Below, in pieces: positions 1,430-9,997 of a stretch of DNA of 28,081 nt; positions within the stretch are counted from its first letter, which is position 1, and the number at the start of each line of letters is the position of its first letter. Under the pieces are notes generated by a model. That model had not been told where the DNA came from. It saw only the letters and a list, made by a program, of their open reading frames with translations, and ran no database searches. Source of the stretch: a virus; the IMG/VR virus record IMGVR_UViG_3300029953_000630. One strand, 5' to 3'. The position numbers were made by a program, and so were the translations under genes.

Positions 1430-1912
1430 TCATGACTTACTACACAGTCTACCGTACTGTAAACACAGTGAACGGAAAGTATTTCTTGCAAGCCTGAGTC
1501 CTCGTCGAATCCTATCTTGGTAATCTGCGTCTAGCCCCGCTTTTTGTTTTCGAGTGACTATTGCCCGTTTTCGGTCATCGGCAGTTACAGAGGTAGCCCC
1601 ATTAAGCCCCGCCTGATTGATGTAATCAAACCCCCCGCTTCCACCCTGTCTTAAGTTGTAGCACATGGGGTCTCCGCGATAGGCTTTGATTAAGTCGAAC
1701 TCTTTCTCGAACGCTTCCGTTGGGTTGTCAAAGATGAAGCAAACATTCTTGAGGAAACTTTGTTCCCCATATTTCTTAATTACTCGTTTCAGAATCTTAC
1801 CCGACCCGAGATACCCATCGTACGGGTCACTGGTCTTGTGGACACCGAAGTATGGTGTGTGGTAACTGTCACGACGAAATTCATGCTGGTTTAAGGGTTT
1901 TGGTTGCGTAGC
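1430..1912 (-). pseudogene. GIY-YIG homing-endonuclease-like reading frame with no canonical start codon (possibly frameshifted or pseudogene)
   Basis: Minus-strand frame open from 1912 to TGA at 1430. Translation ...PYFGVHKTSDPYDGYLGSGKILKRV...EAFEKEFDLIKAYRGDPMCYNLRQGGSGG resembles the I-TevI-type YIG-R-E-N catalytic core. The only in-frame ATG is at 1666 (the 78-aa ORF in the track). Overlaps the 5' end of tRNA-Arg(CCG). Confidence 0.4.
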
Positions 1913-1978
1913 TCAGCGGATTAGAGCAGTGCCCTCCGAAGGCAAAGGTCGGTGGTTCGAATCCACCCGTGACTACCA
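1902..1978 (+). tRNA. tRNA-Arg (anticodon CCG)
   Basis: D-arm and anticodon arm (GTAGCTCAGCGGATTAGAGCAGTGCCCTCCGAAGGCA) closely resemble bacterial tRNA-Arg(CCG). T-arm GGTGG-TTCGAAT-CCACC. Acceptor GGTTGCG/CGTGACT has 3 G-U pairs. ACCA encoded. Confidence 0.65.
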
Positions 1979-2010
1979 TTTTAGGAGAAAGAATGAAAAG
2001 TTCTAAATAA

Positions 2011-2091
2011 GGGCGTGTACCGTCCCCGCCTTCTAAGCGGGAGTAACGTAATTGGATGAGAATGTAGGTTCGACTCCTACCACGCCTACCA
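2011..2091 (+). tRNA. Atypical tRNA-like gene: anticodon arm CCCGC-CUUCUAA-GCGGG (UCU, Arg-type), no canonical D-arm, 22-nt variable region
   Basis: Acceptor GGGCGTG/CACGCCT, discriminator A, CCA. T-arm GTAGG-TTCGACT-CCTAC. Only 5 nt lie between position 9 and the anticodon stem. Confidence 0.4.
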
Positions 2092-2106
2092 GTTTTAAGA
2101 GGTGTT

Positions 2107-2337
2107 ATGCACGATTTGCAAGATGTGGACGTTGTCGTATGTGGCACTGCACTCCACCCTGATGAGGGGATGATGGGGATTCGCGTGACTCCTCACGACC
2201 CGTATCAATATGGGTTTGTTCACATGATGTATCGGTTTCATGGAGATGGGGCTATCGACCTGCTCCTTCAACCGATACGGTCACTAGACAACATCAAAGT
2301 TACAACTACGAGGACGTTCGAATCGTTCCACCGATAA
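2107..2337 (+). CDS. Hypothetical small protein (76 aa)
   Basis: ATG preceded by AAGAGG at -8. ORF in track. Confidence 0.4.
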   Translation: MHDLQDVDVVVCGTALHPDEGMMGIRVTPHDPYQYGFVHMMYRFHGDGAIDLLLQPIRSLDNIKVTTTRTFESFHR

Positions 2338-2412
2338 CACCTTTGACGGTAGGCCACCATTGAAGGGCGGGTTCTTCCGGGGGACACATGGTAAAGGTGC
2401 CTGTGAATTTTT

Positions 2413-2478
2413 GCCCTCGTAGCTCAGTGATCGCCCTCCGAAGGCGGCGAGAGTAATCTCATCGTAGTTCGAAAATTT
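2413..2478 (+). pseudogene. Degenerate tRNA-Arg(CCG)-like 5' fragment (acceptor, D-arm start and anticodon arm only)
   Basis: GCCCTCGTAGCTCAG...CGCC-CTCCGAA-GGCG matches the 5' half of the 1902-1978 tRNA. Lacks D-stem closure and T-arm. Confidence 0.35.
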
Positions 2479-2555
2479 GGCTTCGTCGTCCAATTGCATT
2501 AGGGCACTAGTCTTCGAAACTAGTTATCAGGGTTGGAGTCCCTGCGAGGCCACCA
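2479..2555 (+). tRNA. tRNA-Arg (anticodon UCG)
   Basis: Acceptor GGCTTCG/CGAGGCC. D-arm GTCC-AATTGCATTA-GGGC. Anticodon arm CTAGT-CTTCGAA-ACTAG. T-arm CAGGG-TTGGAGT-CCCTG. ACCA encoded. Confidence 0.65.
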
Positions 2556-2560
2556 GTTTT

Positions 2561-7502: not shown

Positions 7503-7526
7503 AGCCAAAACACAGTATTAACGTAC

Positions 7527-7943
7527 ATGATAGATACTGACCCCTACCTGTATGTGCATAACTGTGCTATTCGGTTGTTCATTGAATGGAAGAAACACCC
7601 CCAACTTATTGTAGCCGTCGATTTTGACGAAACCCTCTTTGATTTTCACGAGAAGGGGTACACCCACGAAAAAGTTATTGCCCTCCTGAAGCGTTGCCAA
7701 GAATGCGGCTTCTACATTGTGCTATTCACCGCCTCGGCTCCTGAGCGGCATAAATTCATGAATGACTACATGCTGGGGCGTGGTATTGTACTCGATTCCA
7801 TCAACGAGAACCCCATCCCCCTACCCTACGGAAACCACGGGAAAATCTTCTACAACATCCTATTGGATGATCGAGCCGGACTTGGACAAGCAGTTGAGAC
7901 CCTGACCGAGGTACTCAAGATGATTGATAATTTCACGACATGA
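7527..7943 (+). CDS. HAD-superfamily phosphatase/hydrolase (138 aa)
   Basis: Motif I VAVDFDETLFD (DxDxT), motif II LFTAS, motif IV LLDDRAG. Confidence 0.6.
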   Translation: MIDTDPYLYVHNCAIRLFIEWKKHPQLIVAVDFDETLFDFHEKGYTHEKVIALLKRCQECGFYIVLFTASAPERHKFMNDYMLGRGIVLDSINENPIPLPYGNHGKIFYNILLDDRAGLGQAVETLTEVLKMIDNFTT

Positions 7944-8098
7944 TGAACTTCGATGATCTCGTCTACTACGAAGCGCAGCAGTCATCCTTTCCTGATATAA
8001 ATGTGGACGGGTATTTGGCCGACCATCTTAGCAGCGGGGATTTCATCCGAGCCAGGGGATTGAGTATTACACTTGAGGAGTTGAACAATGAACATTGA
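7943..8098 (+). CDS. Hypothetical small protein (51 aa)
   Basis: ATG overlaps the HAD stop (ATGATGA). Not in the >=60 aa track. Confidence 0.25.
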   Translation: MNFDDLVYYEAQQSSFPDINVDGYLADHLSSGDFIRARGLSITLEELNNEH

Positions 8099-8278
8099 TG
8101 ACAAGAAATTTGCTGCCCTTACTGTCAGCGATAGAAACATAACACACAGATTCTCCCGTGGATAGAGGAGAGAGTCTGTGTCCTACGTGTAAGAAGAACA
8201 TGAGCGTGGGATTGCAATTACTTCCCGGCCAGACCAACACGTCATGGACGAAGTTAATCTGGTGGTGCAGGGAGTGCG

Positions 8279-9124
8279 ATGCAAAGAGAGAAAAAAAAGA
8301 TGCACCACGTAGTTCAGACCGACCTGTTCCATGAGTACGGGTACACGACCATCATCAACGCTCTGAATGAGCAGCAGGTACCCTATACGGTGGTGAAGGT
8401 GGCACCGTTCGCTCAGCGGGGTGATATTGTTGAGGCAAAATATGACTCGGATATCCCCTATGCCCATAATTTGAATATTGAGGGCAAAGTCATGGTATGG
8501 GGTTCGACCACCCCTGGGCATATTGCGGCTGAGAAGGGTTGGAAGCCGGGGCGGTTCCAGAACGACAACTTCGACATGCGGGTCTTGTTCGAGAAGTATG
8601 GCGCGAACATGCTCAGCAGCGATGCCAAGTTCTGTACCTTCGGGGAGCTAGAGTACACCGGGATGAAATTTATCCGCCCGGTACATGACTCAAAGACCTT
8701 CAGTGGCGTCGTCATGGACGGCTCCGGGCTGGCCGAGTGGAAGAAGCGGGTACTGGATGTCACCGATGGGTACTCTACCCTGAGGAGTGACACCCCGGTC
8801 ATGTACGCCAGCCCAAGGAACATTGAGCTGGAGGCACGGTTCTTCGTAGTCAACGGTAGAGTGGTCACTGGCAGCTCATACAGGACGCTAGGACGGCAGT
8901 GCATGTATCAGAGGATAGACAGCCTCAACCCGCTGTTCCATCCCCTCCTACGCTACGCACAGGGGCAAGTGGATTGGTGGAGCCCTGACGATGCATTCGT
9001 GCTTGATGTTGGGGTAGTGGACGGAATCCCCTATGTGCTGGAGATAAATAGCATCAACGGGGCGGGGTTCTACGCTTGTGATATGAATGCAGTGGTAAAA
9101 GCTCTAGAGAACATGGTACAATGA
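8279..9124 (+). CDS. ATP-grasp domain protein (DUF4343/R2K-like), paralog of 21020-21846
   Basis: C-terminal FVLDVGVVDGIPYVLEINSINGAGFY resembles the ATP-grasp L-E-x-N core. Shares RFFV(V/I)xGR with the 21020 protein. The true start may be the second ATG at 8300. Confidence 0.5.
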   Translation: MQREKKKMHHVVQTDLFHEYGYTTIINALNEQQVPYTVVKVAPFAQRGDIVEAKYDSDIPYAHNLNIEGKVMVWGSTTPGHIAAEKGWKPGRFQNDNFDMRVLFEKYGANMLSSDAKFCTFGELEYTGMKFIRPVHDSKTFSGVVMDGSGLAEWKKRVLDVTDGYSTLRSDTPVMYASPRNIELEARFFVVNGRVVTGSSYRTLGRQCMYQRIDSLNPLFHPLLRYAQGQVDWWSPDDAFVLDVGVVDGIPYVLEINSINGAGFYACDMNAVVKALENMVQ

Positions 9125-9269
9125 CGGGGAATTGGGTATTAGTATGTAGACCAAAAATTTTTGGGTTTCCAAACCACCAATAGAACCGCAAAGCAGTCAA
9201 GTTCATCGTGCAAAGGATGAGAAATGAAACGAAACCACAACTATTAGATAGATAGGGAGGGGGGAGCAC

Positions 9270-9839
9270 ATGAATGACACACTGGTACTCGACAGCAACT
9301 GGATGCCAGTAGGGTTTGTCCCATGGCAGCGCAGCGTTAAACTTATATGGGAAGACCGTGCAAAGATTGTCAAGGAAGACGAAGGCGGTCAGGTGCTCCG
9401 CTCTACTAGTTTCGAAATGGGGCTCCCTCGCGTAATTCAGGTAAAGAACGCTTGGGTAAAGAGAATGCGTACGGCTGTGCCATGCACTCGCCGGAATCTC
9501 CTTGCGCGTGACCACGCAACGTGTCAGTATTGCGGACACGTAGTGGGCACCCACGAGTACACCATCGACCACGTGAACCCTCGTTGTCAGGGTGGTGTTA
9601 CCGAGTGGCTCAACTGCGTAATTGCTTGCGTGAAGTGTAACAAGCGTAAGGGTGGGCAGACGCCGGAAGCGGCAGGGATGCCGCTTCTCAATCAGCCATA
9701 CATCCCGAAGGTTAATGACCCTCGATTCAACTTCAAGTTGCACATCAAGCACATCAGGCCGGAATGGACCGAGTGGCAGAACTGGCTGTACGCCGAGAAG
9801 GCTTCGTACGCTTATTGGAATATCGAACTAGAAAAGTAG
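9270..9839 (+). CDS. HNH endonuclease
   Basis: CQYCG...TIDHVNPRCQGG...NCVIACVKCNKRKG gives the HNH motif with a Zn-binding CxxC pair. Strong RBS GGGAGGGGGG. Confidence 0.8.
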   Translation: MNDTLVLDSNWMPVGFVPWQRSVKLIWEDRAKIVKEDEGGQVLRSTSFEMGLPRVIQVKNAWVKRMRTAVPCTRRNLLARDHATCQYCGHVVGTHEYTIDHVNPRCQGGVTEWLNCVIACVKCNKRKGGQTPEAAGMPLLNQPYIPKVNDPRFNFKLHIKHIRPEWTEWQNWLYAEKASYAYWNIELEK

Positions 9840-9920
9840 CTTTCATCCTCTGAGCGTACTCTGCTCATCGAAGATGTTGAAGTTGTATCCACAGCCGCAC
9901 GTGGAAGAAAGATTTACAGC

Positions 9921-9997
9921 GGCCCCGTAGTCTAGCTGGACAAGGCATCTCCCTCCTAAGGAGAAAATCGCTGGTTCGACTCCAGCCGGGGCTACCA
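9921..9997 (+). tRNA. tRNA-Arg (anticodon CCU)
   Basis: Acceptor GGCCCCG/CGGGGCT, discriminator A, CCA. Anticodon arm TCTCC-CTCCTAA-GGAGA. T-arm GCTGG-TTCGACT-CCAGC. Confidence 0.8.

Follow-up and report, generated by a model that had tools for sequence, protein, structure and literature searches.

We analyzed a 28,081-nucleotide stretch of viral DNA (IMG/VR virus record IMGVR_UViG_3300029953_000630; the whole stretch is hereafter called the window) and found that its gene for a compact arginyl-tRNA synthetase (ArgRS) is split into a short first open reading frame (ORF) and a remainder lying in the +1 frame, with an arginine codon at the junction. The same split structure is conserved in genes for miniature ArgRS, histidyl-tRNA synthetase (HisRS) and tryptophanyl-tRNA synthetase (TrpRS) of other contigs, the offset being always +1 and the codon at the site always cognate to the enzyme encoded. 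We consider it roughly 60% likely that the synthetase is made by +1 frameshifting at a hungry cognate codon when charged tRNA-Arg is scarce, which would place its synthesis under negative feedback. The ArgRS gene and the surrounding tRNA-Arg genes form the arginine section of a phage translation island (544-9997) that is conserved in relatives.

The first ORF of the ArgRS gene (4295..4369, + strand), recognized by three-frame translation and homology, comprises 24 codons in the zero frame (VKPMPEVVGVGVTSIAPLEYLRRV, then a stop), starting at GTG 4295 with GGAG 8 nt upstream and ending at TGA 4367-4369. The encoded peptide corresponds by homology to the N-terminal end of relatives with an uninterrupted gene, such as MKPMPEHIGVGITAMTSLECLGSFKHESIGIYHNY in L004/P0010 (L and P numbers denote loci and proteins, respectively; L005 was also compared), and DNA similarity to relatives begins ~85 nt 5' of the annotated ArgRS start. 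The remainder of the gene (4359..5453, + strand; ORF list and homology) lies in the +1 frame, where AGFDYKP precedes the 357-aa ORF listed at 4380-5453 and the continuation (…AGFDYKPVGIHHNYH…) runs for 365 codons without further stops or frameshifts. The first-pass annotation of this DNA had pointed to a compact ArgRS-like gene amid tRNA-Arg genes; the gene is there, with its true start at 4295. The predicted fused product has 385 aa, the same length as the uninterrupted P0010, and gene callers report such genes as N-terminally truncated proteins (P0001-P0009 and others). At the junction, conservation and a motif scan delineated a putative programmed +1 frameshift cassette, GGAG-TAC-CTT-CGC-C (4348..4361, + strand), in which a Shine-Dalgarno (SD)-like GGAG and a 3-nt spacer are followed by CUU as the P-site codon (4355-4357) and CGC (Arg) as the A-site codon (4358-4360). 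The cassette motif occurs twice in the window, against 0.14 occurrences expected.

The same interruption was found in 10 non-redundant loci (the window, L001, L002, L006, L007, L008, L067, L011, L012 and L013) with 44-76% protein identity and from independent metagenome assemblies, duplicates having been dropped by sequence (L003 = L002, L073 = L067, L014 = L068 = L004, L019 = L005) and related contigs from similar samples remaining. Among 42 non-redundant loci with a recognizable N-terminal motif, the two parts of the gene were in frame in 33, offset by +1 in nine and by -1 in none. The zero-frame site of the clade containing the window reads (C/U)UG GAG NNN CUU CG(C/U) (C/G)GG GUU U(GA/AG), and only the spacer codon varies (TAC, TGC, GGT, TGT or TAT). 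The site is CAG GAG UUG GUU CGG in L011 and L012, and GGUG-UGU-CUU-CGC followed by UGA in L013. Counts of variable positions at first, second and third codon positions were 11/8/16 in the zero frame before the site and 20/18/48 in the +1 frame after it; the third-position bias thus switches frame at the site, which indicates selection in both frames. Between the site and the downstream HNYH motif, ATG, GTG and TTG are absent from six of the 10 loci (L002, L008, L067, L011, L012 and L013), and the conserved +1-frame motif G-F-(D/E)-Y-K(P), upstream of any restart, matches G-[FY]-x-[YH]-E of uninterrupted relatives. Taking the three synthetases together, CUU is invariant in eight ArgRS, eight HisRS and three TrpRS loci, with GUU in two, and in all cases an SD-like GGAG, GGAGG or GGUG, overlapping conserved codons, precedes it by 3-4 nt. 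Two other explanations of the split were rejected: an alternative genetic code or stop readthrough, given three consecutive zero-frame stops after the site, and a -1 frameshift or transcriptional slippage, given the +1 offset and the lack of a zero-frame X XXY YYZ heptamer and of a long homopolymer.

The split recurs in two further miniature synthetases. Intact mini-HisRS genes in L006 and L008, with ~166 called residues and encoding the catalytic core only, consist of a first ORF (MEMQARGTRLLTGAEAKRRRLHPEHAC, then a stop), the site CGG AGG CG(G/A) CUU CAU C and the enzyme remainder in the +1 frame. The arrangement GGAG(G)-N3-4-CUU-CAU is present in L006, L008, L146, L147, L152, L153 and L029 and in a mini-HisRS pseudogene of the window; L146 and L147, contigs of 463 kb and 488 kb, have the same CUU-CAU site, and L148 is uninterrupted. 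No other occurrence of the HisRS cassette GGAGGCGNCTTCAT was found across 157 loci. The window pseudogene (660..1171, + strand) was recognized by six-frame translation and by blastn and tblastn comparison with the intact L006 and L008 genes. Its first ORF (660-728) and cassette GGAGG-CGT-CTT-CAT-C (709-723, with CTT CAT at 717-722) are intact, and its body is decayed, with a ~100-bp inverted segment (757-855), a ~100-nt deletion of motif 2 and a late C-terminal frameshift. A single-protein query retrieved no mini-TrpRS relatives from viral contigs, and a protein database was searched instead. Mini-TrpRS genes with GGUG-NNN-CUU-UGG are found in L007, where GUG CGU CUU UGG G lies at codon 52, and in L156 and L157, where AUG GUG (ACU/CGU) CUU UGG C lies at codon 4. 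In the latter two, the +1 product regains the canonical N-terminus M-V-x-L-GSKLCGFRPTGRLHxGHYF (compare MKSLCGLRPTGRLHIGHYF in the uninterrupted P0133). The mini-synthetases measure 385 aa (ArgRS), ~185 aa (HisRS) and ~235 aa (TrpRS).

An unbiased scan for the cassette was run over both strands of 158 sequences. A match had to consist of GGAG, GGTG or GAGG, 3-4 nt, CTT and a codon; a start codon had to precede it, the zero frame had to close within 14 codons, and the +1 frame had to stay open for 110 codons or more. It returned 25 non-redundant matches, of which 18 were synthetase genes, and in 18/18 of these the A-site codon was cognate: CGC/CGT in eight ArgRS matches, CAT in seven HisRS matches (including the distant L152, L153 and L029) and TGG in three TrpRS matches. 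The seven matches without synthetase context had A-site codons for E, V, V, P, G, I and L.

In the mechanism that we propose, translation would start at GTG 4295 and proceed through 21 codons to CUU (4355-4357), bringing CGC into the A site. If Arg-tRNA(Arg) arrived promptly, the ribosome would stay in frame, meet UGA three codons on and release a useless 24-residue peptide. If it were scarce, the ribosome would wait, and the peptidyl-tRNA(Leu) could re-pair from CUU to UUC, aided by the GGAG 3 nt upstream; GCC would then be read in the +1 frame, giving the full 385-residue synthetase with the predicted trans-frame junction …PLEYL-AGFDYKP… (junction peptide ...APLEYLAGFDYKPVGIHH...). Across the synthetases, the slip would lead to UUC or UUU, with GCC, GUC, AUC, GGC or GGG as the +1 A-site codon. 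The output of synthetase would be inverse to its own product, and the tRNA-Arg genes would supply the substrate, with the tRNA-Arg(ACG) encoded at 3052-3128 reading CGU/CGC, sensor codon included. Since CGC and CGT make up 183 of the 273 Arg codons in window genes (67%), what the site would report on is the main isoacceptor, and no rare tRNA would be exploited. Arginine decoding seems, from the sequence comparisons, to be monitored. That ribosomes would shift at this site and respond to charged tRNA is what analogy with known frameshift sites leads us to expect.

Several points weigh against this mechanism. CGC and CGU, being the commonest Arg codons, are no rare-codon trap, so that a pause would need charged tRNA to be truly short. 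The GGAG falls on conserved Leu-Glu codons and is also present in some uninterrupted relatives (L004), and it may not have been selected as a stimulator. A start codon lies just past the zero-frame stop in four loci (the window, with GTG 4380, L001, L006 and L007), where a protein with a shorter N-terminus could be initiated independently. L011 and L012 have GUU, for which +1 re-pairing is poorer. With 33 of 42 family members uninterrupted, the device is optional, and the interrupted loci belong to few lineages. Finally, the support comes from comparative sequence analysis throughout.

Among the explanations that dispense with a sensor, a constitutive shift would run at a fixed efficiency, either keeping expression low or repairing an old 1-nt insertion. 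Beside L004, the window gene does look as though one nucleotide had been inserted at the site (CTT-C-GCC vs TTA-GGC); CGC is a common codon, and frameshifting as a translational 'correction' of indels is described in PMC5009743. Such a shift would leave unexplained both the cognate A-site codon in 18/18 synthetase genes for Arg, His and Trp and the differing positions of the TrpRS cassette (codon 4 vs codon 52), and we regard it as unlikely. Less probable still is that there are two genes and no frameshift, that is, a leader peptide followed by independent initiation or termination-reinitiation at GTG 4380, only 11 nt past the zero-frame stop, producing an enzyme without its first 28 residues. 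Gene callers annotate the relatives in this way (P0001-P0009), and start codons do occur at that place in the four loci named above; the other six interrupted loci have none there. Moreover, the conserved +1-frame G-F-x-Y-K/E lies upstream of any restart and is homologous to uninterrupted relatives, the offset is always +1, and the supposed leader is homologous to the enzyme's N-terminus and modelled as strands of its N-terminal sheet (predicted local distance difference test score, pLDDT, 96-97). The decayed genes nearby (the HisRS pseudogene, a broken GIY-YIG gene and tRNA remnants) might bring to mind that the interruption is a lesion of a pseudogene or an error of sequencing or assembly. 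This is highly improbable, since 10 diverged, independently assembled loci have the same type of interruption at the corresponding position, both halves are under purifying selection, each in its own frame, and the +1 frame of 365 codons is otherwise intact.

More than 190 compact homologues (295-420 aa) from metagenomes make up the family of the ArgRS-like protein; the contigs of some measure 140-650 kb, and two homologues come from the huge-phage records LR756504 and LR745206. Pfam recognized the C-terminal anticodon-binding domain DALR_1 (E = 8.6e-8; 32.7 bits vs a cut-off of 22.3), and tRNA-synt_1d fell below its gathering score (22.7 vs 23.3 bits), matching residues 19-56 only. A profile of 55 family members searched against the PDB matched ArgRS chains only (best 5.4e-22), with sequence identities to canonical ArgRS structures of 13-18%. 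The AlphaFold2 model of the 385-aa product had a pLDDT of 95.3 (96-97 for residues 1-50) and a predicted template modelling (TM) score of 0.93, and the top 20 Foldseek matches were all ArgRS, with query TM-scores of 0.64-0.73 and GluRS, CysRS and MetRS far behind. The HIGH signature takes the form LHVGH, which aligns to the HIGH motifs of 1iq0 and 6ao8 and whose H39, G41 and H42 are invariant in 16 homologues; a KMSKS-like KKMRS motif is also conserved. Residues D28, N33, H42, Y131, Q153 and D135 are invariant in the family and were matched to E. coli D118, N123, H132, Y313, Q341 and D317, the last of which we take to count in the arginine-binding motif as well; this correspondence derives from motif spacing and a hidden Markov model alignment, not from a solved complex. 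The first five of the E. coli residues are those that bind arginine (PMC3956977).

The full Add1 domain, which holds the A20 pocket (PMC3956977), is missing (~100 residues absent), and a short beta-hairpin stands in its place; of the beta-rich N-terminus of ~50 residues that is left, the invariant HNYH aligns with 'NIH' at the end of Add1 in N. gonorrhoeae ArgRS (6ao8). The phage enzyme and canonical bacterial ArgRS (6ao8, 1iq0, 4oby) share the class I Rossmann core, HVGH, the D/N/Y/D/Q residues, KKMRS and DALR; they differ in size (385 aa vs ~570-600), in the reduction of Add1 to those ~50 residues and in the shortened insertion modules. As judged from alignment and model, the protein is a genuine ArgRS derivative with intact residues of the arginine and ATP sites. 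It is probably active, as predicted from the Rossmann core, the HIGH and KMSKS-like motifs, the arginine pocket and the DALR domain, and would be expected to charge tRNA.

tRNA genes were detected with ARAGORN and Rfam, the latter also run permissively over 1-10300. ARAGORN called 13 tRNA genes in 544-9997, all on the + strand, and Rfam added two (2011-2088 and 3653-3786). The anticodons CCG, UCG, ACG and CCU, attributed to tRNA-Arg genes at the outset, were all recovered by both programs in canonical genes: tRNA-Arg(CCG) (1902..1978; 77 nt, CCA encoded; Rfam 60.6 bits), tRNA-Arg(UCG) (2479..2555; 51.6 bits, with alignment), tRNA-Arg(ACG) (3052..3128; 70.5 bits) and tRNA-Arg(CCU) (9921..9997; 62 bits), the orthologue of the last being of a long-arm type in L008 and L073. 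Inspection by eye of the ARAGORN structures and sequences showed an encoded CCA and A20, C35 and A73 in all four, and anticodon loops CU-NNN-AA, the same as in ordinary bacterial tRNA-Arg. In tRNA-Arg(UCG), C19:G56 replaces the near-universal tertiary pair G19:C56; the swap, being compensated, speaks for a tRNA that folds and is in use. The starts of three tRNA-Arg genes and of an Arg-derived gene with an insert, described below (1902, 2479, 3052 and 3653), are spaced at intervals of 573-601 nt.

Two further elements of the first-pass annotation, a UCU-type atypical gene and a degenerate CCG fragment, are real as sequences. The UCU-type tRNA-Arg-like gene (2011..2091, + strand) scored 37.6 bits with Rfam (gathering score 29) and retains in the Rfam alignment an intact acceptor stem, anticodon arm (loop CUUCUAA), T-arm and CCA. 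It lacks the D-arm (4 nt in place of 15) and hence the four arms of a cloverleaf, carries a 19-21 nt insertion in the variable region and has a centroid fold of three arms; it was not called by ARAGORN even at lowered thresholds, and its fold was no more stable than shuffled sequence (z = -1.08). The gene is not kept in relatives, which have a canonical tRNA-Arg(UCU) elsewhere instead. The idea that every Arg codon box is covered consequently hinges, for AGA, on this non-conserved RNA of uncertain function, which has no D-arm. The CCG fragment (2412..2478, + strand; blastn to L007, sequence comparison and fold) is the decayed remnant of a long-variable-arm tRNA-Arg(CCG), with 93% identity to L007 3185-3227, part of an intact 89-nt tRNA-Arg(CCG), so that an intact counterpart exists in relatives; the D and T arms of the fragment are degenerate, and its anticodon arm and a variable arm capped by GUAA persist.

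A third atypical gene (3653..3789, + strand; Rfam tRNA, 51 bits) is tRNA-Arg-derived, its ends matching tRNA-Arg genes of L001, L005 and L007 and its acceptor, D and T arms being Arg-like. Its anticodon-arm region is replaced or interrupted by 61-77 nt (77 nt for 15 in the Rfam alignment), the ARAGORN intron search returning a weak 'Tyr(gta)' with a 61-nt intron and a poor anticodon stem. The insert forms a strong GGUGGG/CCCACC hairpin (fold z = -3.4) and is too short for a group I intron.

The tRNA genes of the island are not confined to arginine. Upstream of the first tRNA-Arg gene lie tRNA-Trp (544-639; 96 nt, long arm), tRNA-Lys(UUU) (1178-1253) and tRNA-His (1297-1374), and within 1902-9997 there are tRNA-Asn (3890-3964), a second tRNA-Asn (3981-4073; 93 nt, long arm), tRNA-Lys(UUU) (5497-5585; 89 nt, long arm), tRNA-Lys(CUU) (5967-6043), tRNA-Gln(CUG) (6057-6132) and tRNA-Met (6739-6815), all on the + strand and called by both ARAGORN and Rfam. 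Because the range from the first to the last tRNA-Arg gene also holds two Asn, two Lys, one Gln and one Met tRNA genes, with Trp, Lys and His just upstream, the cluster is not arginine-specific. The arginine-only module envisaged at first therefore gives way to an island that also serves Trp, His, Asn, Lys, Gln and Met and that in relatives carries mini-HisRS and mini-TrpRS genes; the arginine module is one third of this broader system.

We found no near-identical DNA for the window among known phages. Its closest relatives (L001, L005, L006, L007, L008 and L073; 59-76% protein identity) carry the same type of island, with the same set of amino acids in largely similar order, and the only exceptions are two short doubtful calls (Ser in L007 and Tyr in L008). 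Each of these islands, like that of the window, contains three to five tRNA-Arg genes. They begin with tRNA-Trp and end with tRNA-Arg(CCU) where the downstream sequence suffices (the window, L008 and L073). Distant ArgRS-like members are often without a nearby tRNA gene (L002, L004, L011-L013, L015, L018, L058, L069 and L072). The interpretation first suggested is partly supported: the ArgRS is genuine and linked to three to five tRNA-Arg genes in this clade, and the need for a +1 shift at an Arg codon is compatible, in a homeostatic sense, with rescue of arginine decoding. A module specific to arginine is not supported, and distant members often have no tRNA. The interrupted ArgRS-like genes of L011 (5871-7053) and L012 (5706-6888) lie in high-GC contigs without tRNA genes, next to genes for BrxL, HATPase, an Amidoligase_2/GATase pair, a RuvB-like ATPase and an integrase, a context that looks more like an integrated element or defence island than a huge phage.

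Why the tRNAs are there is a separate question, and the two drivers considered next concern the presence of the tRNAs and are both compatible with a frameshift sensor. The tRNA-Arg set and ArgRS might mainly replace host tRNA-Arg cut by an anticodon nuclease of the colicin D type or by another tRNA-targeting defence. Phage tRNAs are known to counter tRNA-cleaving defences (PMC10264068, PMC11464382, PMC11555353), multiple isoacceptors are present, and a sensor of low charged tRNA-Arg would react to such an attack. Counter-defence tRNAs are recognized by anticodon-loop changes relative to typical bacterial tRNAs or by shown resistance (PMC10264068), and by eye the loops seen here are ordinary and show no change of the escape type. 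Pfam and PHROGs scans of the larger window ORFs gave no match to RNA-repair families, tRNA repair included, the island spans seven amino acids rather than Arg alone, and interrupted ArgRS genes also occur without nearby tRNA (L002, L011-L013). We hold this driver to be doubtful, no feature found here pointing to a nuclease of the colicin D type in particular. The classic explanation of phage tRNAs, codon-usage compensation (PMC10264068), would have them top up codons favoured by the phage, with ArgRS keeping them charged. The phage does favour CAG, AAG, AAC and CAC, and its island has tRNA genes for Gln(CUG), Lys(CUU), Asn(GUU) and His(GUG), but this account, to which we likewise assign a low probability, leaves unexplained the duplicate normal and long-arm tRNAs of the same anticodon, the fixed amino-acid set across relatives and the frameshift cassettes.

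Many of the island tRNAs (Trp, His, Arg, Asn, Lys and Gln) measure 84-96 nt in the window, L001, L006, L007, L008 and L073. Extra variable arms are normally restricted to Leu, Ser and Tyr tRNAs, and long tRNAs outside these three classes made up 53 of 364 unique tRNAs across all loci examined. Their variable arm forms a hairpin of 3-5 bp capped by GAAA, another GNRA loop or UUCG, with a stem that covaries among orthologues, and a long tRNA usually adjoins a normal-length tRNA of the same anticodon. Possible roles of the long-arm tRNAs are those of a private substrate pool, of decoys or of copies resistant to nucleases; our literature search, of incomplete coverage, returned nothing relevant on long-variable-arm phage tRNAs. 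The amino acids of the island, apart from Met, are all six that have side-chain nitrogen (Arg, His, Lys, Asn, Gln and Trp), three of which are covered by mini-synthetases. The chance of all six falling in a random set of seven out of 20 is ~2e-4, a figure calculated post hoc for islands that share ancestry, so this may be coincidence. These observations can be joined in a speculative reading, which we think improbable as a whole, of a private feedback charging system: each mini-synthetase (Arg, His, Trp) would be made upon shortage of its cognate aminoacyl-tRNA, the GNRA-capped long-arm tRNAs would form a host-orthogonal pool and the amino-acid set would be an adaptation to nitrogen-starved hosts.

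The island also contains a repeated ~41-nt element, GTTACATCCCCGGAAAGTCTCGGGGTTCGATTGAAA, with a CCCCGG/CTCGGGG hairpin (window 86-157, 6617-6703 and 7238-7498). The 18-nt core of GTTACATCCCCGGAAAGTCTCGGGGTTCGATTGAAA has eight copies, on the + strand only and always intergenic in the island, against none expected, and the element may serve as a promoter or in processing or regulation.

Further tRNA-like sequences lie between the tRNA genes. A mini tRNA-like element (2987-3050) has a 7-bp acceptor stem with G3:U70, the identity pair of alanine tRNA and transfer-messenger RNA (tmRNA), a T-arm and CCA, and is devoid of D and anticodon arms. The ends of 2987-3041 score as tmRNA at 30.7 bits in Rfam (threshold 47); with GGGTTAG at 2763 as an alternative 5' strand, the RNA would have the size of a tmRNA (288 nt), for which a convincing tag frame was not found. 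In a second element (3795-3889), the order is T-arm, acceptor-like stem closed by UUCG and D-arm, as in a permuted tRNA or in the tRNA-like module of bacterial Y RNAs; its Rfam match to YrlA reached 21-22 bits (threshold 69), and its fold was not above shuffles. A tRNA-Asn(GUU) 3' half (anticodon loop, T-arm and CCA) lies at 4075-4131. A 5' tRNA fragment at 4243-4290, GGAATCGTGGCAGAATTG, is identical to the start of the long tRNA-Lys at 5497, the copies at 4254 and 5497 being direct repeats 1243 nt apart; because these repeats bracket the ArgRS gene, they suggest cassette insertion or duplication. At permissive thresholds, Rfam detected no T-box, riboswitch, group I intron or tmRNA scoring at threshold in 1-10300, and lowered ARAGORN thresholds gave only implausible tmRNA and intron calls. 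The spacers 2556-3050, 3129-3650 and 5586-5966 between tRNA genes are long and GC-balanced, with many local hairpins, and no convincing ORF, Rfam match or DNA counterpart in relatives (blastn) was found for them.

Peptidyl-tRNA hydrolase, HAD phosphatase and ATP-grasp genes had also been placed near the arginine genes. The latter two do lie in that range: a HAD-like gene (7527-7943), assigned from phrog_1238 only, with a DxDxT-type motif seen by eye in the translation and no Pfam match, and an R2K ATP-grasp gene (8279-9124; Pfam). The PTH2-like peptidyl-tRNA hydrolase gene (21945-22373) is ~12 kb outside it. Genes downstream (19611-24963 and 20938-21846) encode a Ku-like protein, a second R2K ATP-grasp protein, the PTH2-type hydrolase and a major-vault-protein-like protein (shoulder and repeat domains, 819 aa), the last of which is also encoded next to the island in L001. 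Genes for an RNA 2'-phosphotransferase (PTS_2-RNA/Tpt1-like) near mini-synthetases in L008 (13027-13584) and L155 (2331-2855) hint at tRNA repair or processing in related phages; none was found among the window ORFs scanned.

A GIY-YIG homing-endonuclease-like gene (1430-1900) is broken by an in-place inversion, its 18 N-terminal residues, MTYYTVYRTVNTVNGKYF, being encoded on the + strand at 1430 and the remainder (…YFGVHKTSDPYDGYLGSGK…) on the - strand from ~1850 down to ~1496. Together with that of the HisRS pseudogene, this makes two in-place inversions within 1.3 kb, which could be real rearrangements or assembly artefacts; no inverted repeats that might be invertase sites were found around the two inverted segments.

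If ribosomes do shift at these sites, they would represent a new form of synthetase control, in which a coding sequence gauges the supply of its own product through one cognate codon, and the principle of release factor 2 (RF2) would be extended from stop to sense codons. A compact and portable cassette of ~13 nt could then report the charging of a chosen tRNA in living cells. The annotation of phage synthetases is affected as well, split genes being now listed as N-terminally truncated proteins, and natural miniature synthetases are relevant to minimal catalytic units ('urzymes') and to orthogonal pairs for genetic-code engineering. Large phages appear not only to carry parts of the translation machinery but also to regulate them by the state of the host tRNA pool. 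In the literature that we searched, with incomplete coverage, we found no aminoacyl-tRNA synthetase gene, whether of a phage or of a cell, for which a frameshift is described, and no such sense-codon sensor.

Synthetase output is tied to the charging of the cognate tRNA in T-box leaders, in pheST leader-peptide attenuation and in the thrS operator. The purpose is shared, synthetase output following charging by way of a cognate codon or specifier; those systems act through transcription termination or blocked initiation, whereas the phage control would act within the coding sequence by a change of frame. The frameshift site of prfB reads CUU-UGA-C. The gene shares with the phage genes a short zero-frame ORF of ~21-25 codons, a CUU that serves, putatively in the phage, as the slippery P-site codon, an SD-like motif 3 nt upstream and a product in the +1 frame; under the proposed mechanism, it also shares an A-site signal read by the gene under translation or by its product, which would close a negative feedback. 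The A-site signal is a stop codon in prfB and a sense codon for the cognate amino acid in the phage; prfB encodes a release factor, whereas the phage synthetase would act indirectly, through tRNA charging; and the zero-frame stop, itself the sensor in prfB, lies 0-8 codons past the phage site. The CUU-stop shift of prfB provides negative feedback by RF2 (PMC10885494), and the SD-like element at its +1 site sets the criterion for such a stimulator (PMC2790909). An SD-like element located no more than 6 nt from the E site raises +1 shifting.

Ty1/Ty2 and ABP140 likewise combine CUU, an Arg codon and a following C, with a peptidyl-tRNA(Leu) that slips while a slow Arg-tRNA is awaited (PMC5009743, PMC2790909). 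At the Ty1 site, CUU_AGG_C, ~40% +1 shifting occurs at the slow Arg codon (PMC5009743). Ty1 relies on a constitutively rare tRNA-Arg(CCU) and yields a fixed Gag:Pol ratio, whereas the phage codons CGC/CGU are common and a pause there would report charging; the phage site further differs in its bacterial and viral setting, its SD-like stimulator and its location in a gene for the enzyme that would charge the sensed tRNA. Huge phages carry tRNA arrays and synthetases distinct from those of the host, proposed to charge phage tRNA variants (PMC7162821). The large contigs with tRNA arrays and synthetase genes studied here resemble those complements (Al-Shayeb et al. 2020), but miniaturized enzymes, split genes and frameshift control are not part of that study (PMC7162821), and the present island serves seven amino acids. 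By analogy, the phage cassette probably works like the prfB and Ty1 sites while belonging to neither family.

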